Numbered from the stretch's first letter, positions 1-32,451 are shown. The stretch is DNA of 46,003 bases from a virus (IMGVR_UViG_2562617057_000011:1-46003); one strand, 5' to 3'. Notes: generated by a model not told the origin, from the sequence alone. A program made the numbers and translations.

Positions 1-1314
1 CTAACTCACTGATTTTAATAAGCCTCTTGTGTCACTTTGGTGACCATGGGACATCATTGGGACATAATCTGCCAGCTTCTGATTCAGCATTGCGATCTGT
101 TCTGCATTGCTGTCAGTCATCCATGCTCCGTATACATTGAACACCATCTGGGCACTTGCATGCCCCATCTGGCTGGCAATGAAGCTTGGGTTTGCTCCGG
201 CAGATAATGACCAGCACGCATAAGTGTGTCGTGACTGGTATGCTTTCCGGTGCCTGATGCCCGCACGCTTAATGGCTGTTTCCCATGAGTCGCCAATGGA
301 ATCTACCTTGTAGATAAAACCTACCTGTTTGCTTTTTCTAACCACCTGGGGGTTAAATACGAAAGTACATTCATGATTCACTGAACGTCCATATTCACGT
401 AGTTGAACCTTGATGTGGTGCTGCTTACCCAGTCTTGTCATTTCAGCCTGATTTTTCAGGACACTGATAGCGGGCTGGATAAGATGCACAACCCTGTTTG
501 TACTTGCTTCAGTTTTAGGTAGAGTGAACTCACCGAGTTTCGTATAATTGCGCCTGATAGTAATAGTTCCTGCTTTCAGATCGATATCTTCCCAGGCCAG
601 GGAGACCAGTTCACCGTGACGCATTCCTGTGTACACAGCCAATGACCACAGGTTTTTCGTCTGCTGATGTCGGCAAGCATCTATCAGGCGAATAAATTCG
701 TCACGAGTTAGCGGATCTGGCTCTGCCCTGGCTCTTTTAAGAGGCTTAATTCCCTGGAAGGGATTTGCTTCTAAGTAACCGTGATCTGCAGCAAACTGAA
801 ACATTCCAGCGATTGTCGTCATGTAATAATTTACAGTAACGACGCTCCGTCCTTTTGCTGCTGCTTTGTTTTTCGTTGAATTCTGATACCCGGTCAGCAA
901 ATCTTTCCTGATATACAGCAATTCCTCTTTGGTTACCGATGACACCAGTCTGCCGCCTCCAATTTTCGGAACCATCGTTCTTGCAACGGATTCATAGCGA
1001 TTGAATGCATTTGCAGAGATTTCCATTCGTTTCAGATCCAGCCACTTTTCTTCAAGTTCCTTCACCGTAATTTCTTTTTTACTTACCCCAAAAGCCTGAA
1101 GGTTAGGGGAGTCAGGGAACTGTGCAGCATAATCAAAGCTTCCTGTGCGGATGGCAAAACATACCGATGTCCGCAGTTCCCCGGCGATCTTCCTGTTCTT
1201 GGCAGTGTCAGGGACACCAAGATTTTCCCTGACACGTTTACCTTTAAAATTAAACCAGATGCGTAATGTGCCGCCGTGGTTTTCGACGCCTGTTGGATAT
1301 TTGACTTTATCCAT
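1..1314 (-). CDS. int: phage tyrosine integrase (site-specific recombinase), 437 aa
   Basis: Complete minus-strand ORF with stop at 1-3; C-terminal catalytic-type R, H-x-x-R and Y residues; followed by an excisionase gene as in lambdoid int-xis modules. Confidence 0.95.
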   Translation of the reverse strand: MDKVKYPTGVENHGGTLRIWFNFKGKRVRENLGVPDTAKNRKIAGELRTSVCFAIRTGSFDYAAQFPDSPNLQAFGVSKKEITVKELEEKWLDLKRMEISANAFNRYESVARTMVPKIGGGRLVSSVTKEELLYIRKDLLTGYQNSTKNKAAAKGRSVVTVNYYMTTIAGMFQFAADHGYLEANPFQGIKPLKRARAEPDPLTRDEFIRLIDACRHQQTKNLWSLAVYTGMRHGELVSLAWEDIDLKAGTITIRRNYTKLGEFTLPKTEASTNRVVHLIQPAISVLKNQAEMTRLGKQHHIKVQLREYGRSVNHECTFVFNPQVVRKSKQVGFIYKVDSIGDSWETAIKRAGIRHRKAYQSRHTYACWSLSAGANPSFIASQMGHASAQMVFNVYGAWMTDSNAEQIAMLNQKLADYVPMMSHGHQSDTRGLLKSVS

Positions 1315-11375: not shown

Positions 11376-11648
11376 TCTGCAAGTCCGGGACGTTACACTG
11401 TTCCGGCACCTTATAAAACGGGTGCCGGGATTTGCACCCCGGAATTGATCAAGGCGATATATGACGCGCCAGCGTCTTTTTTATCGTCCACGCTCACGCA
11501 CGCCAGAATTATGGTGGGCTGGGCAGGGGAGCCGAAAGGCTCGCCGGTTTCCTTGATCGCCGGTAGTGCAAACCCTGTTCAGTCCGCCACCAGCGAGATT
11601 TGCACCTCCGGTGGTGGAAGTATTTCACCGATCAAGGAGGCTGCCATT
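11376..11648 (+). repeat. structured RNA leader, unit 1 of 3
   Basis: Hairpin 11403-11428, terminator 11463-11482, GAAA-tetraloop hairpin 11529-11542, helix GTGCAAA 11567-11573 with TTTGCAC 11599-11605, second helix CCACCA 11587-11592 with TGGTGG 11610-11615, SD AAGGAGG 11634-11640. Confidence 0.7.
11463..11482 (+). terminator. intrinsic terminator inside leader unit 1
   Basis: GACGC-GCCA-GCGTC hairpin followed by TTTTTT. Confidence 0.55.
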
Positions 11649-11720
11649 ATGGCTACGATCCCAGTTTCCCCATTCCTCAAAATCGAAGTCGTCAACGGTA
11701 AGGCCGTTACTACATCTCTT
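11649..11720 (+). pseudogene. Rha-family gene remnant (first ~24 codons only)
   Basis: ATG at 11649 with MATIP..KIEVVNGKAVTTSL start matching the Rha copies at 12015 and 12671, then diverges; the frame stays open only by running into the next unit. Confidence 0.4.
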
Positions 11721-11829
11721 TTCGGATATCTCAAACTGTTGCGCCTTGCTGGTGTTCCGGGTTATATTTCTCGCGTTGCTGTAAATCCAGCAACCGGGCT
11801 TCGCATCCCGAAACATCACACAGGGCTGA

Positions 11830-11852
11830 CACGCCATAAGCGTGTTTTTTTG
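11830..11852 (+). terminator. intrinsic terminator inside leader unit 2
   Basis: ACACGC-CATAA-GCGTGT hairpin followed by TTTTTT. Confidence 0.55.
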
Positions 11853-12014
11853 TCTACGCACGTCTATTCAATGGCGGCTCAGATGGGAGCTTCTTCGGAA
11901 GCGCCGGTTTTCCCTTGTGTGTCCGGTAATGCGAATCCTGTCTGGGCTGCCACCAATCATGGTTTCGCATCCGTGGGTGGTAGCTGTAAAGCACACACAC
12001 AAGGGGCTGTCACC
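11853..12014 (+). promoter_or_regulatory. structured RNA leader, unit 2 of 3
   Basis: UUCG-tetraloop hairpin 11890-11903, helix ATGCGAA 11930-11936 with TTCGCAT 11965-11971, second helix GCTGCCACC 11947-11955 with GGTGGTAGC 11977-11985. Confidence 0.65.
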
Positions 12015-12377
12015 ATGACTACCACCACTACTCACCCATTCCTCAAAATCGAAGTCGTCAACGGCAAGGCCGTTATTTTCTCTTTGCATGTGGCCTGCCA
12101 CTTTAAGCGCATGCACCAGAACATCGTCGACAAAATCGAGTATCTGAACTGCTCGCGCGAATTTTTTACCCGCAATTTCATACCGGGTACTTACCACATC
12201 TATGACGACTCTCTGCGTGGTTATTACATCACCCTTGATGGTCTGATGCTGCTTCAGCTTGGGTTAAGTCTGCGCACAATGCGGTACTACGAGAGTTGCA
12301 TTGAAGCGTTCCATGAGGCTGAAACCGTCCAGGTGCATTCCGCTTTCCGTCGTCATCAACGGGAGGTGCACCTATGA
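12015..12377 (+). CDS. Rha-family regulatory protein, short form, 120 aa
   Basis: ATG at 12015 after leader unit 2; N-terminal FLKIEVVNGKAV motif shared with the other copies; Rha-like central segment. Confidence 0.6.
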   Translation: MTTTTTHPFLKIEVVNGKAVIFSLHVACHFKRMHQNIVDKIEYLNCSREFFTRNFIPGTYHIYDDSLRGYYITLDGLMLLQLGLSLRTMRYYESCIEAFHEAETVQVHSAFRRHQREVHL

Positions 12378-12384
12378 TCCGCTA

Positions 12385-12670
12385 CCTGAATATTGATTCT
12401 GCAATTCCGGGACGTTACACTGTCTCTGCACCTTATAAAGCGGGTGTCGGGCGTGAGAACCCGGAATTCACCAAAGCGCACAACCGCGCTCTTGCGGTTT
12501 TTTTGTGTCATGAGCAGCATTACGCCCAAATTATGGTGGGGCGTGCAGGGCCAACTTCGGTTGGGCCGGGTTCTTTGGTGACCGGTTTCTCACCCCTGTA
12601 CGTCTCACCACCTATTGCCGTGAGAAGCTTTGGTGGTGAGTTATTAAAAATCACCAAAGAGGCTGCCATC
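12385..12670 (+). repeat. structured RNA leader, unit 3 of 3
   Basis: Terminator 12483-12505, UUCG hairpin 12551-12564, helix TTCTCAC 12587-12593 with GTGAGAA 12620-12626, second helix CTCACCACC 12604-12612 with GGTGGTGAG 12632-12640, SD 12656-12662. Confidence 0.7.
12483..12505 (+). terminator. intrinsic terminator inside leader unit 3
   Basis: ACCGC-GCTCTT-GCGGT hairpin followed by a T7 run; stem differs from unit 1 by compensatory changes. Confidence 0.55.
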
Positions 12671-15459: not shown

Positions 15460-16856
15460 CAAACCCGACAAATCCGGCGTGGCGTAATGATGACCTGGAA
15501 GGTGCAGTGATTGGCGCGTTTTTTCTGCGTGGGGCTGATCCGGAAGTGATGGATATTCTGGCCACGCTTCCGGCGGATGTATTTTTTGTACGCCAGTACC
15601 GGGATATTTACGCAGGGATTTGTAGACAGGCCCGTGTATCCGGTGTGATTGACCCCGTACTGCTGTGCAATGAGATGCCGGAACTAGCCCCGGTGATTAC
15701 CGACACCGGACGTAAAACCTGGGTGAAGTCTTCACTGGAGCACTATGTTGCAGCGTTACGGCGCAATGCTGCATTGCGTGATGCAGAAAAAACACTGAAT
15801 GAGGCGCTGCAGAAATTACGTGATGCGCATACCTGTGAAGCAGCTGAAGATGCCCTGAAGGATGCGCACAATATGATGGCCTCATTGTCGACGGAAAAGG
15901 GCGTCATTCAGCCGGTACATATTGATGATGTGCTTCCGGAAGTGGTTGAGCGTGTTGAATGCCGGAATCAGGGGCTGGAGAAATCCAGGACGTTGATGAC
16001 CGGTATTGATGAACTGGACGCAAAAACAGGCGGTATGGAGCCCGGAGACCTGGTATTCATTGCCGCCCGTCCTTCGATGGGGAAAACCGAACTTGCGCTG
16101 GACATCATCGACAAGGTGACTGAGCAGGGGCATGGTGTGCTTCTGTTCACCATGGAGATGGCGAACATCCAGATTGGTGAACGTATGGTGTCTGCGGCTG
16201 GAGGGATGCCAGTATCACGCCTGAAATCTGTGGCTCACTTTGAAGATGAAGACTGGGCGCGTTTCTCACAAGGGGTGGGGCGGATGACCGGGCGCAATAT
16301 CTGGATGGTGGACCAGGCGAACCTGACCATTGATGAGATATGCGCAACAACGAAACACCATCTGATTAAACATCCGGAAACGGCGCTGGTGGTGGTTGAT
16401 TATCTCGGGCTGATAAAAACCCGAACCACGGGGCGTCATGACCTTGCCGTGGGTGAAATCTCAAAGGGGCTTAAAGGCCTGGCAAAATCCGGTGGTTTTC
16501 CGTTGATTGCGCTGAGCCAGCTCTCCCGCGGTGTGGAGTCCAGACCCAATAAACGTCCCATGAACTCAGACCTGAAAAATTCCGGAGAAATAGAGGCGGA
16601 TGCAGACATCATTCTGATGCTTTACAGGGATGAAGTGTACAACCCGGATACGCAGGCCAGGGGCATCGCAGAAATCAATATCACGAAACAACGTAACGGT
16701 TCTCTGGGAACGATTTACCGGCGTTTTTATAACGGACATTTTCTGCCTGTGGACCAGGAAAGTGCACGGGTGCTTTCCACTCCCATGAAGCCCGGCAATC
16801 CGCGCAGATACAGTAATAAACGAACTGACAGCAGTAAGATGGAGCGTTTCTTTTGA
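15456..16856 (+). CDS. DnaB-family replicative DNA helicase, 466 aa
   Basis: RecA-like helicase core (ARPSMGKTELAL, DYLGLI motifs); ATG at 15456 overlaps the upstream stop; GAGGTG Shine-Dalgarno. Confidence 0.9.
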   Translation: MTNPTNPAWRNDDLEGAVIGAFFLRGADPEVMDILATLPADVFFVRQYRDIYAGICRQARVSGVIDPVLLCNEMPELAPVITDTGRKTWVKSSLEHYVAALRRNAALRDAEKTLNEALQKLRDAHTCEAAEDALKDAHNMMASLSTEKGVIQPVHIDDVLPEVVERVECRNQGLEKSRTLMTGIDELDAKTGGMEPGDLVFIAARPSMGKTELALDIIDKVTEQGHGVLLFTMEMANIQIGERMVSAAGGMPVSRLKSVAHFEDEDWARFSQGVGRMTGRNIWMVDQANLTIDEICATTKHHLIKHPETALVVVDYLGLIKTRTTGRHDLAVGEISKGLKGLAKSGGFPLIALSQLSRGVESRPNKRPMNSDLKNSGEIEADADIILMLYRDEVYNPDTQARGIAEINITKQRNGSLGTIYRRFYNGHFLPVDQESARVLSTPMKPGNPRRYSNKRTDSSKMERFF

Positions 16857-17110
16857 ACAACCAGACAATGACTTTTACCCCTGAACAATTGCGTAAACAC
16901 GCGCAGGAAATGCTGCGTCATGCTGAACAACTCGAAAAAACGGGCATAACAAAAGACGCTATCCGTAAAGATATGGTACCCGCGCTTCGGGAACTGATGC
17001 AGGCGAAGCATCGCGCACAGAAAGCAGTAGATGAGCTGGTGGACTGTGTGGCAGAGCTGGAAACCAGAGTCGGAAAGTTTGAAAAACTGGTGCAGGAGGT
17101 GCTGCGCTGA
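16853..17110 (+). CDS. hypothetical coiled-coil protein, 85 aa (non-ATG start uncertain)
   Basis: ORF between helicase and Q; predicted helical; ORF track start is TTG, next ATG at 16868. Confidence 0.45.
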   Translation: MNNQTMTFTPEQLRKHAQEMLRHAEQLEKTGITKDAIRKDMVPALRELMQAKHRAQKAVDELVDCVAELETRVGKFEKLVQEVLR

Positions 17111-17481
17111 TGCGTGATATTCAAATGGTTCTTGAACGTTGGGGGGCATGGGTGGCAAATAATCACGAGGATGTGGAATGGTCATCTGTTGCTGCAGGTT
17201 TTAAGGGATTAATCCCTTCGAAAGTAAAATCCCGCCCGCAATGTAGCGATGACGATGGCCTGATCATTAGCTCTGCGATGACAGTTCTTAAGAAAAAGGA
17301 ACCGTATCAATACGAATTACTGGAAATGTATTATGTGTATGGGGTTACATTACGGGCGTTGGGGGTAAAACTGGGGATATCACTTAATCAGGTTGTTATC
17401 AGACTGCAGAAAGCTGAAGGGTTTATTGACGGTTGTCTGGCAATGTTGGGGGTATCTTTAGAAATTGATTGTTACATATAG
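17110..17481 (+). CDS. Q: late-gene antitermination protein Q-like, 123 aa
   Basis: Sequence recalled as matching prophage Q-family antiterminators (MRDIQMVLERWGAW...); GGAGGTG Shine-Dalgarno; sits before the late/lysis region. Confidence 0.75.
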   Translation: MRDIQMVLERWGAWVANNHEDVEWSSVAAGFKGLIPSKVKSRPQCSDDDGLIISSAMTVLKKKEPYQYELLEMYYVYGVTLRALGVKLGISLNQVVIRLQKAEGFIDGCLAMLGVSLEIDCYI

Positions 17482-17520
17482 TAATAAATTCAATCAAAGT
17501 AAATAATCATATTTTATTAT

Positions 17521-17553
17521 AACCTCCTGATGATACCTGTTCATCGGGAGGTT
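17521..17553 (+). promoter_or_regulatory. 13-bp-stem hairpin that sequesters the ribosome-binding site of the next gene; possible tR-prime-like element
   Basis: AACCTCCTGATGA-TACCTGT-TCATCGGGAGGTT; the 3' arm contains GGGAGG, 3 nt upstream of ATG 17557; AT-rich promoter-like sequence precedes. Confidence 0.5.
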
Positions 17554-17556
17554 ATT

Positions 17557-17913
17557 ATGGATAAAAATGTAGAGCATGTATTAGTTGATGCAATTGAAAA
17601 TAAGCAATCTTTAACAGTCGTTTACTTGGGAGGGAGCCAGCCCGGAACATTAAGGAATATTTCTCCGATTAGTATAAATGGGGATAAATTGCGGGCAAGA
17701 TGCCATAGTTCTGGAGCAGTAAAGGTTTTCAATCTTGGGAAAATACAGTTACCCAGTGACTCCTGCGCGGTATCTATGCACTATGGAGATTTAGAAGTTA
17801 AAGCTTATGAGACGATGCAGAGCGTAAATGACAACTTTCATGCCCTTTATCCTGAAGGTCGATGGGGTGTTGATTTTAATGAGCATCGCTTTGCTTTATT
17901 TGATTTTTTTTAA
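17557..17913 (+). CDS. hypothetical protein, 118 aa (possible WYL/SH3-like fold, speculative)
   Basis: ATG with GGGAGG Shine-Dalgarno; AT-rich island downstream of Q; no confident family. Confidence 0.5.
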   Translation: MDKNVEHVLVDAIENKQSLTVVYLGGSQPGTLRNISPISINGDKLRARCHSSGAVKVFNLGKIQLPSDSCAVSMHYGDLEVKAYETMQSVNDNFHALYPEGRWGVDFNEHRFALFDFF

Positions 17914-17940
17914 AACGGGAAACGAAAAAAAACGGCATTT

Positions 17941-18174
17941 ATGGCAATTGAGTTCAGGGAAAGAGATGAAGAGAAAATAATAACAGGTGTAACAATTGAT
18001 ATTGGTATATCTGGAACAGTGATTTCTGAGAAGTCCCGAATCCCAAAAAGACGACCATGGGTAGTGGTTGGTCCCGAACACGGAGAATACAGTACTTATT
18101 CAACTTTGGACAAGGCTGCTACAGCGTTTTTTGAGAGGCTTTCGTTGATAGCATCCGGCCTGGAAGATAATTGA
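17941..18174 (+). CDS. hypothetical protein, 77 aa
   Basis: ORF follows the 118-aa gene in the same AT-rich island; weak ribosome-binding site. Confidence 0.35.
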   Translation: MAIEFRERDEEKIITGVTIDIGISGTVISEKSRIPKRRPWVVVGPEHGEYSTYSTLDKAATAFFERLSLIASGLEDN

Positions 18175-18303
18175 TTTTATGTTTGGTATTCAGAGTTCGC
18201 CGTGCTTAAGAAAGTCAAGATTCTAAAAATACTGAATGAGCTACTTGTGTTATAACAAAAATGCTATTAGTGTGTTAAGAGTGGTTACTTCGCCACACAA
18301 CTT

Positions 18304-18329
18304 AAACCCGCCACTGAGCGGGTTTTTTG
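18304..18329 (+). terminator. intrinsic terminator
   Basis: AACCCGC-CACTGA-GCGGGTT hairpin followed by TTTTTT. Confidence 0.65.
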
Positions 18330-18450
18330 TACCTGTAAACCTGGTGCAGTACAGTAAACACGCTGGTGGTCGTGAATACTGACTTTTTATCTTGCTGGCT
18401 TTTTAGACAAGAGTTATTGGTATGTCATGTTAACCAGAAGGGAAAAAGAC

Positions 18451-18654
18451 ATGCTAAAACAGCAAGATATGACAGAAACCGCCGCCGCAGTCCTTCATTT
18501 CTTACCTGCTGACAAGTGGGTAACGCCACGCATGATGACGAGAACTACCGGAGTAAGCGAAGCCCGGTGCCAGTTAATACTGACTCAGTTAGTTCTGGCG
18601 GGTCTGGCGAAGGATAACGGCGGGTACGGGAATAAATTCAGACGCTGCCAGTAA
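18451..18654 (+). CDS. small putative winged-helix DNA-binding protein, 67 aa
   Basis: ORF upstream of the methyltransferase gene; second ATG preferred because of a purine-rich SD-like sequence. Confidence 0.4.
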   Translation: MLKQQDMTETAAAVLHFLPADKWVTPRMMTRTTGVSEARCQLILTQLVLAGLAKDNGGYGNKFRRCQ

Positions 18655-18804
18655 TGGCGGTTTCCTGCTGTGAAAATGGGCGGCTGGTGGGTGTTGGTAG
18701 CACCTGCCAGCCATTCGCTCATGCTTACTGGTCACAAGCGAACCACGGCCCACTGCTTTAGCGCAAAAGCAGAGTGAGCCTACCAGAGTTACGCTTACTG
18801 ATCC

Positions 18805-19863
18805 ATGAAAAATACTGTATAAATAAACAGTATTGATTTAATCAACGCTGATTGCCTGCATTTTATTCAGTCCCTGCCTGATGATTCCATTGACCTGATT
18901 GTTACAGATCCGCCGTACTTCAAGGTGAAACCCAACGACTGGGACAATCAGTGGAAAGAGGACGAAGATTACCTTAAGTGGCTGGACCACTGTCTGGCCC
19001 AGTTCTGGCGGGTGTTGAAACCTTCCGGAAGTCTTTACCTGTTCTGTGGTCATCGCCTGGCATCTGATATCGAAATCATGATGCGTGAACGCTTTAATGT
19101 GCTGAACCACATTATCTGGGCGAAGCCGTCCGGGCGCTGGAACGGGTGCAACAAGGAAAGCCTGCGGGCGTATTTCCCCGCCACAGAGCGCATTCTGTTC
19201 GCGGAACATTATCAGGGGCCGTATCGTCCAAAAGATGATGGCTATGAGGCGAAGGGCAGGGCACTGAAACAGCATGTGATGGCTCCGCTGATTTCTTACT
19301 TTCGTGATGCGCGTGCGGCTCTGGGGATAACGGCAAAACAGATTGCTGATGTCTCAGGAAAGAAAAACATGGTGTCGCACTGGTTCAGTGCCAGCCAGTG
19401 GCAGTTACCGAACGAGGATGATTACAGAAAACTTCAGGTGCTGTTTGCCCGGGTGGCAGAAGAGAAACATCAGCGGGGTGAACTGGAAAAGCCACATCAC
19501 CAACTGGTCAGCACATACAGTGAGCTGAACCGGCAGTATGCCAGCCTGCTGGAAGAGTACAAATCCCTGCGGCGTTATTTTTCCGTATCGGCAGCCGTTC
19601 CTTATACGGATGTCTGGACGCACAAGCCTGTGCAGTATTATCCGGGCAAACATCCCTGTGAAAAACCGGCAGATATGTTGCGGCAAATGATTACCGCCAG
19701 CAGTCGTCCGGGTGACCTGGTTGCAGATTTCTTCATGGGGTCCGGTTCGACAGTCAAAGCAGCGATGGCGCTGGGGCGTCGTGCAATTGGTGTCGAGCTG
19801 GAGGCTGAACGTTTTGAGCAGACCGCAAGAGATGTACAGAATTCAATCAGAAAGAGAGAGTGA
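18805..19863 (+). CDS. beta-class DNA amino-methyltransferase (N6-adenine or N4-cytosine), reading frame interrupted by TAA at codon 6; possibly a pseudogene
   Basis: DPPY motif near the N-terminus and FMGSGST SAM-binding motif near the C-terminus; ATG 18805 then MKNTV, TAA at 18820-18822, frame continues INSIDLINADCL..DPPY; ORF track starts at GTG 18925, after DPPY. Confidence 0.7.
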
Positions 19864-19903: not shown

Positions 19904-19979
19904 GGCCCTTTAGCTCAGTGGTGAGAGCGAGCGACTCATAATCGCCAGGTCGCTGGTTCAAGTCCAGCAAGGGCCACCA
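19904..19979 (+). tRNA. tRNA with anticodon CAT (Ile2-like, lysidine-type; Met not excluded), CCA encoded
   Basis: 76-nt cloverleaf folded by hand; very similar to E. coli ileX as recalled; anticodon loop CTCATAA. Confidence 0.85.
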
Positions 19980-19980
19980 A

Positions 19981-20054
19981 CCACCACTAGCTCATCCGGA
20001 TAGAGCATCAACCTTCTAAGTTGACGGTGCGAGGTTCGAGTCCTCGGTGGTGGG
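19981..20054 (+). tRNA. tRNA-Arg, anticodon TCT
   Basis: Cloverleaf with acceptor CCACCAC/GTGGTGG, anticodon loop CTTCTAA, T-loop TTCGAGT; no encoded CCA. Confidence 0.8.
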
Positions 20055-20059
20055 CCAGC

Positions 20060-20135
<76 letters not shown>

Positions 20136-20138
20136 TAT

Positions 20139-20213
<75 letters not shown>

Positions 20214-20827
20214 GCGAGATTTGAGACGAAGGTTGTTATTTGCACTGACACAATATTGTGTGGGAATGTCTGACTCCTTACCATCTCCTGTTCTGTGATG
20301 TTGTTTTGTTGCAGTTCCAGTGCTCTTTTTTCAGCACCAGAATGGTGCATTGTCGGTCAGGTTACGTAGTGAACCTCTGGCAGGGGACTGATGATTCATC
20401 ATTCTGGTGTTGTAAATATCTCTTCGGACAACTTACAAAATATTCTAAGCAAACCCCGGGAACACACTCTTAACTGCCTTGGCTGGCGGTTTTTTGTACA
20501 GCGCTCGGTATGTGTGAGCTGGAAATCAGATTTTGCATGGACTGGAATCATGCTGTTATTTAGGGGCGAAGAACTGGCTTTTTCTTCCGCCTTCTCACCA
20601 GTAACGATTAGAAAAATAATGAAATGCCCCCCTCCGGGGAGGAGGACCGTAGAAAAAAGGACCCGCCAGCAAAAACATTGGGGATGAACAGCTTTCGCTA
20701 CTCAGATTGCTGGCGGGTAAAGTTCCTCATGAATTAAGAATGCTACGCGATCTTTTTTAATGGAAATGAAAATTATTGTCAATTAGTCGTGCGTGTTTTT
20801 TCATACAATATTGGTAAAGGTGATTCA

Positions 20828-20860
20828 GGCCATCAGAGTTTTGCTGATGGCCTTTTTTCT
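20828..20860 (+). terminator. intrinsic terminator upstream of the lysis genes (tR-prime-like)
   Basis: GGCCATCAG-AGTTTTG-CTGATGGCC hairpin followed by TTTTTT, about 35 nt before the holin start. Confidence 0.65.
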
Positions 20861-24412: not shown

Positions 24413-26312
24413 TATGATGGTGGCAGTCACTATCGCACTGCAGCCACTGGTCAGGGTATTGCCGGTGACGGCTGTAGAATGGGCCGATCAAAATTATTAC
24501 CTGCCTAAAGAATCGTCATACGGTGAGGGGGAATGGAAAACGCTGCCGTTTCAGGTCGCCATCATGAACTGCATGGGCAATGACGAGATTCGTACAGTTA
24601 ACCTGATTAAATCTGCCCGTGTTGGTTATACAAAAATGGTGCTTGGTGTGATCGGGTATTTTATTGAGCACAAATCCCGCAACACTCTTCTTTTTCAGCC
24701 GACGGACTCAGCTGCTGAAGATTTTATGAAGTCTCACGTGGAAGCAACAATTCGTGATGTTCCTTGCCTGAAAAAACTTTCTCCCTGGCTGGGCCGGAAA
24801 CACCGGGATAATACGCTCACACTGAAGCGTTTTTCCTCTGGTGTGGGGTTCTGGTGTTTGGGTGGTGCTGCTGCCAAAAACTACCGTGAAAAATCTGTCG
24901 ATGTGGTCTGCTATGACGAACTCTCCTCGTTTGAACCGGATGTGGAAAAAGAAGGTTCGCCAACACTGCTTGGCGATAAACGTATTGAAGGTTCGGTATG
25001 GCCAAAATCCATACGCGGTTCAACGCCAAAAATCAAAGGCTCCTGCCAGATTGAAAAAGCCGCGAATGAATCTGCACATTTCATGCGGTTTTATGTCCCT
25101 TGCCCTCATTGCGGGGAGGAGCAGTATCTGAAGTTTGGCGATGATGCGACGTCGTTTGGCCTGAAATGGGAGAAGGGTAAACCGGAAACGGTGTATTACC
25201 TGTGTGAACATAATGGCTGCGTGATCCGTCAGTCTGAACTTGATCAGACCGGGGGGCGCTGGATTTGTGACAATACCGGGATGTGGACGCGTGACGGTCT
25301 GACGTTTTTCAGTGCTTCGGGTAATGAAATTCCGCCGCCGCGCTCCATCACTTTCCATATATGGACGGCGTACAGTCCGTTCACCACCTGGGTACAGATA
25401 GTCTGTGACTGGCTGGATGCACTGAAAGATCCCAACGGCGTGAAAACTTTTGTGAACACCACGCTGGGCGAGACCTGGGAAGAGGCCGTGGGCGAAAAAC
25501 TCGATCACCAGGTACTGATGGATAAGGTTGTGCCTTACACGGCAACGGTGCCTGTCCGGGTGGTTTATCTGACGGCGGGCATTGACTCGCAGCGAAACCG
25601 TTTTGAGATGTATGTCTGGGGGTGGGCTCCGGGAGAGGAAGCCTTTCTGGTGGATAAAATCATCATCATGGGACGTCCTGATGAGGAAGAGACGCTGTTA
25701 CGTGTGGATGCGGCGATCAATAAAAAATACCGCCATGCAGACGGTACCGAAATGACCATTTCCCGTGTCTGCTGGGATATCGGGGGGATCGATGGCGAAA
25801 TCGTGTATCAGAGGTCAAAAAAACACGGTGTTTTCCGGGTACTGCCGGTAAAAGGTGCCTCTGTCTATGGCAAGCCGGTGATCACCATGCCGAAAACCCG
25901 CAATCAGCGGGGTGTGTATCTGTGTGAGGTGGGGACGGATACCGCAAAAGAAATTCTCTATGCCCGAATGAAGGCCGATCCCACCCCTGTGAATGAGGCC
26001 ACATCGTATGCCATCCGCTTTCCTGATAATCCGGAGATTTTTTCGCAGACAGAGGCACAACAACTGGTGGCGGAGGAACTGGTGGAAAAGTGGGAAAAAG
26101 GAAAGATGCGTCTGTTGTGGGATAACAAAAAGCGGCGTAACGAAGCGCTGGACTGCCTGGTGTATGCCTATGCGGCATTACGTGTGTCCGTGCAACGCTG
26201 GCAACTTGATCTGGCTGTGCTGGCGGCATCCCGCAAGGATGCAACTGCACAACCGACCCTTGAAGAACTGGCAGCGAAGCTGTCCGGAGGAGTGAATGGT
26301 TACAGTCGCTGA
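24384..26312 (+). CDS. A: terminase large subunit (gpA-like), 642 aa
   Basis: Extensive similarity to recalled lambda gpA (TAVEWAD.NYYLPKES, FMRF.V.CPHCGEEQYLKFGD, YLTAGIDSQ); start overlaps the end of Nu1. Confidence 0.95.
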   Translation: MNISEQQLSNMMVAVTIALQPLVRVLPVTAVEWADQNYYLPKESSYGEGEWKTLPFQVAIMNCMGNDEIRTVNLIKSARVGYTKMVLGVIGYFIEHKSRNTLLFQPTDSAAEDFMKSHVEATIRDVPCLKKLSPWLGRKHRDNTLTLKRFSSGVGFWCLGGAAAKNYREKSVDVVCYDELSSFEPDVEKEGSPTLLGDKRIEGSVWPKSIRGSTPKIKGSCQIEKAANESAHFMRFYVPCPHCGEEQYLKFGDDATSFGLKWEKGKPETVYYLCEHNGCVIRQSELDQTGGRWICDNTGMWTRDGLTFFSASGNEIPPPRSITFHIWTAYSPFTTWVQIVCDWLDALKDPNGVKTFVNTTLGETWEEAVGEKLDHQVLMDKVVPYTATVPVRVVYLTAGIDSQRNRFEMYVWGWAPGEEAFLVDKIIIMGRPDEEETLLRVDAAINKKYRHADGTEMTISRVCWDIGGIDGEIVYQRSKKHGVFRVLPVKGASVYGKPVITMPKTRNQRGVYLCEVGTDTAKEILYARMKADPTPVNEATSYAIRFPDNPEIFSQTEAQQLVAEELVEKWEKGKMRLLWDNKKRRNEALDCLVYAYAALRVSVQRWQLDLAVLAASRKDATAQPTLEELAAKLSGGVNGYSR

Positions 26313-31104: not shown

Positions 31105-31491
31105 ATGGCTACGAAAGAAGAAAACCTGAAACGTCTTTGTGAGCTGGCTGAGAGGCTGGGGCGTGAACCGGATGTCTCCGGTAGTGCGGCAGATATTGCG
31201 CAGCGAGTGGCGGAACTGGAGGAAGAGCTTGGAGATGCGGGGGAGGTCGCAGAGCCGGATACGTACTCACCATCGAAAGATGATCCGACCGCGCATAAAG
31301 GCGAGTCAGTTCCTGAACAGCCAGGCATTGTTACCGGAGACGAAACGGGGCAGGTTACGGTGGTGGCACTGGCGACACTGCATACAAAATGTAATGGTTC
31401 AGTGATATTTGTTTCACCGGGAACGTCGTTTCGTGTTTCTGCTGAGGTGGCGGCCAGCATGGCGGCAGGTGGTCTGGCAAAAAGGCAGTAA
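31105..31491 (+). CDS. FI: DNA-packaging protein FI-like, 128 aa
   Basis: Matches recalled lambda FI (VTVVALA.LHT, PGT.FRVSA.VAA.MA..GLA). Confidence 0.85.
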   Translation: MATKEENLKRLCELAERLGREPDVSGSAADIAQRVAELEEELGDAGEVAEPDTYSPSKDDPTAHKGESVPEQPGIVTGDETGQVTVVALATLHTKCNGSVIFVSPGTSFRVSAEVAASMAAGGLAKRQ

Positions 31492-31502
31492 CAGGAGATG
31501 TC

Positions 31503-31880
31503 GTGGACGGTTTCGATAATCTGTTTGATGCTGCGCTTGCCGGTGTCAATGAAGTCATTCTCCGTGATATGGGGATCAGCGCCGTCATTACGTCCGGAGA
31601 ACTTGAGGGGACACACCTGACAGGGGTTTTTGATGATCCCGAAAGTATTTCTTTTGTTGCCGGGGGGATCCGGCTTGAGGATTCCTCACCGTGCCTGTTT
31701 GTGAAAACGGCAGATATATCGCAGTTACGCCGTCAGGATACGTTAACTATCGGGGATGATTCTTTCTTTGTGGATCGTATTACTCCGGATGACGGGGGAT
31801 GCTGTTATATCCGGTTAAGGCGGGGCAGTCCTGCCCCACAGAATAATGCCAGAATGAGGCGATATGATGAAGGGACTTGA
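31503..31880 (+). CDS. FII: head-tail connector protein FII-like, 125 aa, GTG start
   Basis: Matches recalled lambda FII (FDNLFDAA, GVFDDPE.IS, QLRR.DTLTIG, DR..PDDGG). Confidence 0.9.
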   Translation: MDGFDNLFDAALAGVNEVILRDMGISAVITSGELEGTHLTGVFDDPESISFVAGGIRLEDSSPCLFVKTADISQLRRQDTLTIGDDSFFVDRITPDDGGCCYIRLRRGSPAPQNNARMRRYDEGT

Positions 31881-32451
31881 GAATGCCATCCGCAATCTGA
31901 ACAGCCTCGATACCCGCATGGTGCCACAGGCCAGCGCATGGGCGGTAAACCGTGTGGCGGCAAAGATTATTTCTGTCGCCACACGGCAGGTTGCGCAGAA
32001 TACCGTTGCCGGGGATAACCAGGTGAAAGGTATTCCCCTGAAAACGGTCAGGGAGCGTGTCAGGCTGCTTAAAGCCAGCCCCTCAGGAAAAATGTATGCC
32101 CGCATGCGTGTTAACCGGGGTAACCTGCCCGCCATTAAGCTGGGTACCGCACAGGTCAGACTGGCCCGCTCCCGGCATGGCAGCAACTCACGTCATCGTG
32201 GCAGCGTACTGAAAGTGGGGAAATACCTTTTCCGGGATGCGTTTATTCAGCAACTGGCGAATGGTCGCTGGCATGTGATGCGGCGTATTGACGGCAAAAA
32301 TCGTTACCCCATTGATGTGGTGAAAATCCCGATGTCCGGACCGCTGACACAGGCATTTGAAGATGCCCGCGACCGCATCATTGCTGCGGAAATGCCGAAA
32401 CAGCTGGAGTATGCCCTGAAACAACAACTGAGGTTATGGCTGACCCGATGA
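31864..32451 (+). CDS. Z: tail completion protein gpZ-like, 195 aa
   Basis: Matches recalled lambda Z (QASAWAVNRVA, SVATRQVA..TVAGDN.VKGIPL, LANGRWHVM.R, RYPIDV.KIP). Confidence 0.9.
   Translation: MMKGLENAIRNLNSLDTRMVPQASAWAVNRVAAKIISVATRQVAQNTVAGDNQVKGIPLKTVRERVRLLKASPSGKMYARMRVNRGNLPAIKLGTAQVRLARSRHGSNSRHRGSVLKVGKYLFRDAFIQQLANGRWHVMRRIDGKNRYPIDVVKIPMSGPLTQAFEDARDRIIAAEMPKQLEYALKQQLRLWLTR

Follow-up and report, generated by a model that had tools for sequence, protein, structure and literature searches.

A hairpin between the Q antiterminator gene and its late promoter in a lambdoid prophage is predicted to occlude the ribosome-binding site of a WYL-domain gene

The stretch analysed in this study (hereafter, the window) is IMGVR_UViG_2562617057_000011:1-46003, a viral DNA of 46,003 nucleotides (nt) that was found to be a lambdoid prophage of Escherichia coli. 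It has 96-99.6% identity over most of its length to the RMDEC332 prophage, and its replication region differs. On the + strand, a long hairpin lies between the gene for the antiterminator Q and the late promoter pR' of Q, and covers the start of a gene for a WYL-domain protein. An initial annotation had proposed two possible roles for this hairpin, namely a terminator modified by Q (tR'-like) and a translational gate for the downstream gene. On balance, we lean towards reading the hairpin as a translational repressor that acts in cis, within the 75-nt leader of the WYL gene.

The hairpin was present as initially described, with a stem of 13 base pairs (bp) containing one G-U pair (AACCTCCTGATGA/TCATCGGGAGGTT, 17521-17533/17541-17553), and the stem was found to run on to 15 bp (Table 1). 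Two details of its placement required correction. The Shine-Dalgarno sequence GGGAGG had been put 3 nt before ATG 17557; it is in fact 5 nt away, and the 3-nt distance is that from the end of the 13-bp arm. The hairpin had also been said to follow Q immediately, whereas the stem starts 37 nt past the Q stop codon (17479-17481). The arms of the inverted repeat (17516-17533 and 17541-17558) comprise 18 nt each, are 89% complementary and are separated by 7 nt. The 5' arm includes ACCUCCU, the same letters as the anti-Shine-Dalgarno end of 16S rRNA. Below the core stem, a lower helix of 17513-17517 with 17557-17561 was predicted to pair the AUG across a single U-U mismatch.

When the RNA of 17482-17580 (99 nt) was folded, a free energy of -26.2 kcal/mol was obtained (z = -4.84), and none of 200 dinucleotide shuffles was as stable. 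The hairpin by itself accounted for -22.8 to -23.3 kcal/mol. With G-U pairs allowed, the 15-bp stem was the longest on the + strand of the window. The length by itself does not settle the matter, since 6 of 40 Markov shuffles had a stem of 15 bp or more at some point along the 46 kb. It is the position exactly over the ribosome-binding site, together with retention in a diverged allele, that makes the hairpin more than chance. A search of 17380-18420 against Rfam gave no family at the gathering threshold, and the top match on the hairpin, to an unrelated plastid family, scored 29 bits versus 53. An RNA thermometer of the ROSE or fourU type was also considered and rejected. Such an element has a weak stem with mismatches over the Shine-Dalgarno sequence, which melts at 37-42 °C, whereas the 15 bp of the hairpin are uninterrupted and, at -22.8 kcal/mol (37 °C), far too stable.

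The cost of opening the ribosome-binding site and the start codon (17546-17559) was computed. With RNA 5' ends at 17400-17520, by which the 5' arm is present, opening was predicted to cost 15.6-20.6 kcal/mol, and the mean probability that the ribosome-binding site is unpaired in such transcripts was 0.001. When the RNA 5' end was placed at 17527, 17530, 17534 or 17541, the cost dropped to 2.1-4.1 kcal/mol (4.1 for 17527). As a control, all 60 annotated gene starts of a related prophage (L073) were treated likewise; this was computed on the RefSeq record itself, since the window is not base-for-base collinear with it. The WYL gene, at 20.2 kcal/mol, was at the top of the 60 starts, of which the median was 6.0 and the next values were 18.4 and 15.0. 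The translational gate of the initial annotation is thus borne out at the level of prediction: the ribosome-binding site and the AUG are predicted to be paired, opening costs 15-21 kcal/mol, which is the highest of the 60 starts, and the pairing is kept in both alleles of the locus described below.

The value of 18.4 kcal/mol belongs to an LvrA C-terminal domain-related gene (31425-32417 in the related prophage), whose ribosome-binding site is the second most occluded in that prophage. Its start overlaps the upstream stop codon by 4 nt, so that translational coupling probably opens this site. In the case of the WYL gene, a distance of 37 nt (allele A) or 28 nt (allele B) separates the Q stop codon from the stem, and no leader open reading frame crosses the 5' arm. 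Translational coupling and an upstream open reading frame were considered as openers and rejected; the leader contains a single ATG (17530), which lacks a ribosome-binding site and, in allele B, is not in frame.

The distribution of the hairpin was examined with a probe consisting of the 3' end of Q, the hairpin and the start of the WYL gene. The probe matched 75 of 5426 complete E. coli genomes, 74 of them over at least 80% of its length; the 75th had a weak 63-nt match inside Q. Probe identity was at least 95% in 52 genomes (allele A) and approximately 77-78% in 22 (allele B). Because 74 of the 75 matches cover at least 80% of the probe, no genome was found to have this Q lineage while lacking the hairpin and the WYL gene. 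Only the two alleles, with no intermediates, were seen in IMG/VR and metagenomes, and no third allele was found in GTDB, IMG/VR or JGI metagenomes. Two apparent further alleles, P0006 and P0003, were recognised as copies of alleles B and A, respectively, that are damaged or noisy. Species-representative genomes yielded relatives of only 30-52% identity, from Leucothrix, Vreelandella, Nitrincola and uncultured bacteria, and the hairpin was lacking from environmental homologues at 27-37% identity.

Between alleles A and B, identity was 79% in the Q coding region, 53% in the spacer from the Q stop codon to the hairpin, 82% in the hairpin, 77% in the WYL gene, 30% in the stretch ahead of pR' and 76% from pR' to the terminator. 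Five distinct leader variants were compared on a 20-pair structure. Across them, 97% of the cells were paired, versus at most 57% when the partner was slid. Thirteen of the 20 pairs were invariant, five had a one-sided change and were still paired, one had changed on both sides, and one was broken in allele B (A-U to A-G). By hand count, 7 of 9 substitutions keep or make pairs; a rough binomial estimate at an expected retention of 40% gives approximately 0.03, which is suggestive only. Furthermore, the stem is lengthened over the start codon by two polymorphisms, T17518A (12 loci) and a change of ATG to GTG in allele B2. The opening cost was 17.9-21.5 kcal/mol in the variants of allele A and 12.2-14.9 kcal/mol in those of allele B, and all five keep the gate. 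For 32 distant homologues of the WYL protein, the median opening cost was 4.6 kcal/mol and the maximum 11.9. Accordingly, the gate characterises the Q-linked lineage in E. coli, as opposed to the protein family as a whole.

The two open reading frames after the hairpin constitute one gene interrupted by a nonsense codon. The substitution at 17911-17913 is AAA to TAA (T7A5 to T8A4), and the downstream frame is kept. The uninterrupted gene of 205 codons (WP_000360285.1), with the same ATG, was found in S88, E47 and others, and the RefSeq annotation also starts the WYL gene at this ATG. Frameshifted copies of the gene exist in allele B (L074), and the gene thus decays in some lineages. Its product is a stand-alone WYL-domain protein of 205 amino acids; the Pfam WYL match is weak, and the predicted model has a WYL fold. 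The PADLOC defence models gave nothing beyond weak WYL matches. The hairpin was also considered as an operator for the WYL product, and this idea was dropped, as the model has a WYL fold and no helix-turn-helix family was present among the Pfam matches. Among the papers listed in a literature search, none contained "WYL domain" together with lambdoid, antiterminator or prophage.

Q, the hairpin and the WYL gene are on one strand, and no canonical terminator separates them. Polymerase that enters from the early operon and passes through Q would transcribe both arms, the hairpin would form once the 3' arm emerges, and binding of the 30S subunit would be blocked. The WYL gene would then be co-transcribed with Q yet barely translated, or translated only from RNA without the 5' arm. 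For translation, the 5' arm would have to be removed or displaced. Candidate routes are a nuclease cut, or a weak promoter or processing event that puts the 5' end of the transcript at about 17527 or further downstream; RNase E processing in the AU-rich spacer is another possible route.

The strict linkage of the WYL gene to Q may be understood from the structure of the Q region. Q belongs to the Q21 family and is homologous to the chains of the Q21 crystal and cryo-EM structures (6P18/6JNX, E = 2.7e-10). Matches to Sigma70_r4 (sigma-70 region 4), weak and sub-threshold, were found at residues 67-102, in the 3' half of the gene. Sliding identity against PhiR40_1 and allele B revealed a mosaic joint inside Q at about 17250-17260. 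The 5' half (17110-17259) has at least 83% identity to the Q gene of PhiR40_1, and the 3' half (17260-17481) has 55-60% identity to it versus 85-92% to allele B. The promoter of PhiR40_1 bears another word, TTTACAATCGTAAA, in place of the word TTGTGTTATAACAAAAA of the window (18245-18261), which is identical in allele B and has one exact copy in the window. The G+C content from the middle of Q to pR' is low, at 33-43% versus 50-55% in the flanks. We infer that TTGTGTTATAACAAAAA is matched in specificity to the 3' half of Q, the two forming a pair, with the hairpin-WYL unit riding between them. The conserved module would then consist of the lineage-specific half of Q (sigma region 4-like and presumed to bind DNA), the hairpin with the WYL gene, and the promoter word. 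Recombination that parts Q from its site would break the late switch, so that the WYL gene and its gate travel along; the position between the lineage-specific half of Q and the promoter word would thus explain the strict linkage.

Several points weigh against a translational repressor. The case is built wholly on thermodynamic prediction and two alleles. Covariation among the five distinct sequences was not significant, with 198 of 500 shuffles reaching the observed score, and allele B has one broken stem pair and a weaker gate (12-15 kcal/mol). Two more genes in the related prophage open at 18.4 and 15.0 kcal/mol, and the case of the hairpin is therefore extreme and not unique. The G+C-rich stem base followed by UUAUUAU could also terminate transcription to some degree, and the hairpin may add weak termination or pausing after Q as a secondary role. 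Finally, so stable a gate would nearly silence the gene, which is odd for a gene that is intact in most copies examined, unless an opener exists. When the whole window was scanned for duplexes with the 5' arm as a sign of a trans-acting opener, self-matches and one unannotated site on the - strand were obtained. This site (18849-18893) is the best non-self complement to the 5' arm, at -23.2 kcal/mol, approximately 5.6 standard deviations under the mean of 18,386 scanned windows; it lies opposite the beginning of the DNA methyltransferase gene, in antisense orientation, and no known transcript corresponds to it.

Apart from a secondary contribution, the hairpin might serve in the main as an intrinsic terminator or attenuator, stopping the early transcript past Q, and its overlap with the ribosome-binding site would then be incidental or a secondary economy. 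We regard this as unlikely. The G+C-rich stem base (CCUCC/GGAGG) is indeed followed by UUAUUAUG, with five U in 8 nt, and the G+C-rich part of the stem, at -17.8 kcal/mol, is adequate for a terminator; strong terminators also lie directly past Q in the related small-Q phages 569R4, cdtI and 3W. A general terminator scan gave no match at the hairpin, but it missed the canonical terminator at 18307-18328 too, as it extends stems into the U-tract, so that its silence at the hairpin is not evidence against termination. In a rescoring of the d'Aubenton-Carafa type, in which the hairpin stem was trimmed to its G+C-rich part, d was -6.8, versus +14.8, +6.6 and +32.7 for the three canonical terminators downstream, and the U-tract score was 2.79 versus 4.5-5.0 (Table 1). 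The sub-threshold d is due to the interrupted U-tract. At 12 loci, moreover, the U-rich tail itself is fully paired in a 21-bp stem. The terminators past Q in other phages are bidirectional and belong to inserted reverse-strand genes, whereas the next gene here is co-oriented and would be silenced, and a terminator would have no need of an anti-Shine-Dalgarno arm.

The initial annotation had described the stretch between Q and the hairpin as AT-rich and promoter-like. The former description holds (17482-17518, approximately 11% G+C) and the latter does not, since the stretch has no + strand sigma-70 match of at least 9/12. The one nearby + strand match, ATGATA-17-TATTAT (17530-17558), lies inside the hairpin, with its second hexamer overlapping the ATG. 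The best + strand candidate in the spacer is ATCAAA-16-TATTAT, an 8/12 match with its second hexamer at 17515-17520. If this weak promoter (-10 at 17515-17520) started an open RNA at about 17527, for example in the lysogen, while the Q read-through RNA was closed, the gate would be transcript-specific as in T4. The WYL protein would then come from a promoter of its own and would not be made while the phage's early genes are transcribed. This is distinctly unlikely in our estimation, although the candidate is the most concrete lead to an opener, is in the same register in both alleles (ATCAAA-16-TATTAT in A, with TATAAT in A2, and TGAACA-16-TACAGT in B), and its -10 hexamer ends in both on the T of TAA(C/T)CUCC. 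Such a start would lower the opening cost from about 20 to 4.1 kcal/mol, genes e and I-TevI of T4 provide a precedent (PMC3014915), and the low G+C content (33-42%) fits an acquired gene with its own expression signals. The matches, however, are of 8/12, with poor -35 hexamers and no TG extension; three such matches lie within 130 nt, as is common in AT-rich DNA, and the three conserved -10 positions (T, A, T) could be chance at such divergence. A two-transcript switch built on the same start is improbable. In it, lysogen RNA with a 5' end near 17527 would yield the WYL sensor protein and the lytic Q read-through RNA would be locked, so that the phage would turn off a possibly defensive WYL function when its own replication would trigger it, and the gene would persist between the half of Q and its site.

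If the double-strand-specific RNase III cleaved the stem (15-21 bp), the ribosome-binding site would be either freed or destroyed and the 3' end of the Q mRNA would be exposed to decay, in the manner of sib retroregulation or N-leader processing in lambda. The duplex is long and near-perfect, with 15 bp in the window and with 21 bp, some two helical turns, in variant A2, and its place just 3' of Q recalls sib, which in lambda is placed after int. We give this explanation little credence, as the stem is rather short for a substrate of RNase III, its counterpart in allele B is interrupted by an internal mismatch and a bulge, and nothing in the sequence is specific to RNase III. An element acting at the level of DNA, either a palindromic operator for a dimeric protein or a - strand promoter for an RNA antisense to Q like lambda paQ, is very improbable. 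The arms do form an 18-nt imperfect palindrome, and the - strand match TGAACA-16-TATAAT (17543..17516, 10/12) is the best promoter-like site in 16800-19000. Its hexamers decay to TGAACG and TACTGT in allele B, however, and promoter-like matches in the region are at the shuffle expectation (4 versus 4.3). The G-T-type mismatches of the palindrome are tolerated by + strand RNA and are not symmetric for a protein; because the wobble pairs U-G and G-U on the + strand are A-C mismatches on the - strand, a + strand RNA is favoured over a DNA palindrome. Rho polarity was also tried as a purpose of the arrangement and was rejected, as the gene region is G-rich and not C-rich (GC skew +0.16 to +0.39) and is a poor Rho-loading region.

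The remaining proposal of the initial annotation, that the hairpin is the Q-modified tR'-like terminator, was not sustained, since pR' and its terminator were located at 18245-18328, in register with VT2-Sakai, and the hairpin lies ahead of the unit that Q modifies. The order in a Q cassette is Q gene, pR', pause element, terminator and late genes (10.1101/651190). A Q-sensitive terminator must hence follow pR', and the hairpin, approximately 725 nt upstream of pR', is not tR'. In an eight-way alignment, TTGTGT-17-TAGTGT of the window was in register with the annotated late promoter of VT2-Sakai, TTTACG-17-TATCAT, and this register was shared with the equivalents in PhiR40_1, 3W, Stx2_14040, cdtI, 569R4 and allele B. 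The window has no other late promoter of the Q21/933W type. Its spacer contains the palindromic word TGTTATAACA followed by AAAAA, which is presumed to be a Q-binding element. The palindrome varies with the Q subtype, being TGTTATAACA here, TTTACGATCGTAAA in 933W and Sakai, and GCGGTCCGC in cdtI and Stx2_14040, each with AAAAA; these look like subtype-specific Q-binding elements.

The block at 18274-18328 (GTTAAGAGTGGTTACTTCGCCACACAACTTAAACCCGCCACTGAGCGGGTTTTTT) was found in 202 phage records. It is annotated as a terminator in phage Ayreon, and a late promoter, qut and a "possible rho-independent terminator" are annotated directly past Q in VT2-Sakai. The hairpin sequence, in contrast, occurs only alongside the WYL gene and is not part of the block in the 202 records. 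The initial transcribed part (18274-18288) has one exact copy in the window. Near-copies of the promoter word or of this block, with 2-3 mismatches, occur elsewhere in the window, none of them between the Q stop codon and the hairpin. One of them, TTGTGGGATAACAAAAA at 26115-26131 (+) in the head and packaging region, has two mismatches to the pR' word and is probably due to chance. In Stx2_14040 and Sakai, the promoter lies no more than about 45 nt after Q, the annotated Sakai promoter overlapping the end of Q; in other small-Q phages, differing genes, often on the reverse strand, are inserted between Q and the block. The terminator at 18307-18328 is the first after pR'. In Sakai, Term-seq mapped the principal 3' end of the pR' RNA to the second terminator, at a distance of 258 nt downstream (PMC7547250), and a working tR' here could therefore be 18307-18328, 20474-20495 or 20828-20858.

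Inhibitory leader hairpins of T4 were reportedly described by McPheeters et al. in 1986. Those of the T4 genes e (lysozyme), soc, 49 and I-TevI are gates of the same kind (PMC3014915). In both cases, a stem-loop pairs the Shine-Dalgarno sequence and/or the AUG on read-in transcripts, and the gene is transcribed while its translation is blocked. In T4, however, a mapped late promoter in the DNA of the 5' arm gives open transcripts, where the window has only an 8/12 promoter-like match; moreover, the host element here is a lambdoid prophage, and the stem is longer (15-21 bp) and more stable. The pR'-tR' cassettes (lambda 6S RNA; Q21, 10.1101/651190; StxS, the pR' transcript of Stx phages, PMC7547250) resemble the hairpin in having a stable hairpin and a U-rich run just past a Q of the Q21 family. 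They differ in that the hairpin is upstream of pR', is outside the block of the 202 records and has a sub-threshold terminator score, the real cassette being at 18245-18328. In rpoS and other anti-Shine-Dalgarno leaders opened by small RNAs (DsrA, RprA, ArcZ, StxS), a 5' arm likewise occludes the ribosome-binding site and must be displaced, whereas no partner RNA for the hairpin was found in the window. Retroregulation of lambda by sib and RNase III also involves a long hairpin just 3' of a regulatory gene in a read-through transcript; the stem of our hairpin is shorter than that of sib and also covers the start of the next gene.

On this reading, the hairpin is a translational gate of an ordinary type that has long been familiar from T4 and RNA phages, in a new place. 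The novelty is in where the gate sits, with the Q gene on one side and the promoter of Q on the other, in how strong it is, and in how strictly it is linked to a single Q lineage; none of the findings is surprising in kind. They correct the map of the late switch, in that the gene following Q is part of the early transcript that contains Q, and pR' and the terminators begin at 18245. Such gates are best known from T4 and the RNA phages, and the hairpin also provides a clean example of a very strong one elsewhere. How a seemingly translationally silent gene stays intact in most copies examined becomes a question, and the arrangement suggests a way for accessory genes to persist, namely by lying between two specificity determinants that are adapted to each other.

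Table 1. Features of the Q to late-promoter region and of the terminators downstream (positions in the window; d and U-tract scores from the d'Aubenton-Carafa-type rescoring).
Feature	Position	Strand	Description	d	U-tract score
Q antiterminator gene	17110-17481	+	123 amino acids; PF06530, E = 4.5e-48		
AT-rich spacer, Q stop to hairpin	17482-17518	+	about 11% G+C; 53% identity between alleles, with indels		
Core hairpin	17519-17555	+	5' arm 17519-17533, loop 17534-17540 (7 nt), 3' arm 17541-17555; uninterrupted 15-bp stem, one U-G pair; tail UUAUUAUG	-6.8	2.79
Shine-Dalgarno sequence GGGAGG	17546-17551	+	wholly within the 3' arm; 5 nt (TTATT) ahead of ATG 17557		
WYL gene, first part	17557-17913	+	118 codons; phrog_8498 positions 1-118 of 205; start 17557-17559, end TAA 17911-17913		
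WYL gene, in-frame remainder	17941-18174	+	77 codons; phrog_8498 positions 129-205		
Late promoter pR'	18245-18273	+	-35 TTGTGT 18245-18250, 17-nt spacer, -10 TAGTGT 18268-18273		
Conserved initial transcribed block and terminator	18274-18328	+	GTTAAGAGTGGTTAC..., then canonical hairpin, stem 18307-18311/18318-18322, T6; 18304-18328 overall		
Canonical terminator	18307-18328	+		+14.8	4.59
Canonical terminator	20474-20495	+		+6.6	4.5
Canonical terminator	20828-20858	+		+32.7	5.02

The order of genes on the + strand around the hairpin is DnaC-like gene, DnaB helicase, an open reading frame of 85 amino acids, Q, the hairpin, the two-piece WYL gene, a small open reading frame, DNA methyltransferase, four tRNA genes, and holin and lysis genes. 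The four tRNA genes, between the methyltransferase and holin genes, occupy 19904-20210 (+) and are followed by two canonical terminators (20474-20495 and 20828-20858), through which Q-modified polymerase would have to read. Between the small open reading frame (18452-18655) and the methyltransferase gene, a 14-bp G-U-rich hairpin without a U-tract was found at 18682-18712 (+). In the early operon, at 11406-12615 (+), an isrK-like Hfq-binding RNA occurs three times in tandem, each copy followed by a C4 antisense RNA. All of these copies scored 61-84 bits in Rfam, over the threshold, and the region is a triplicated RNA immunity or antirepressor control region of the P1/Gifsy type.

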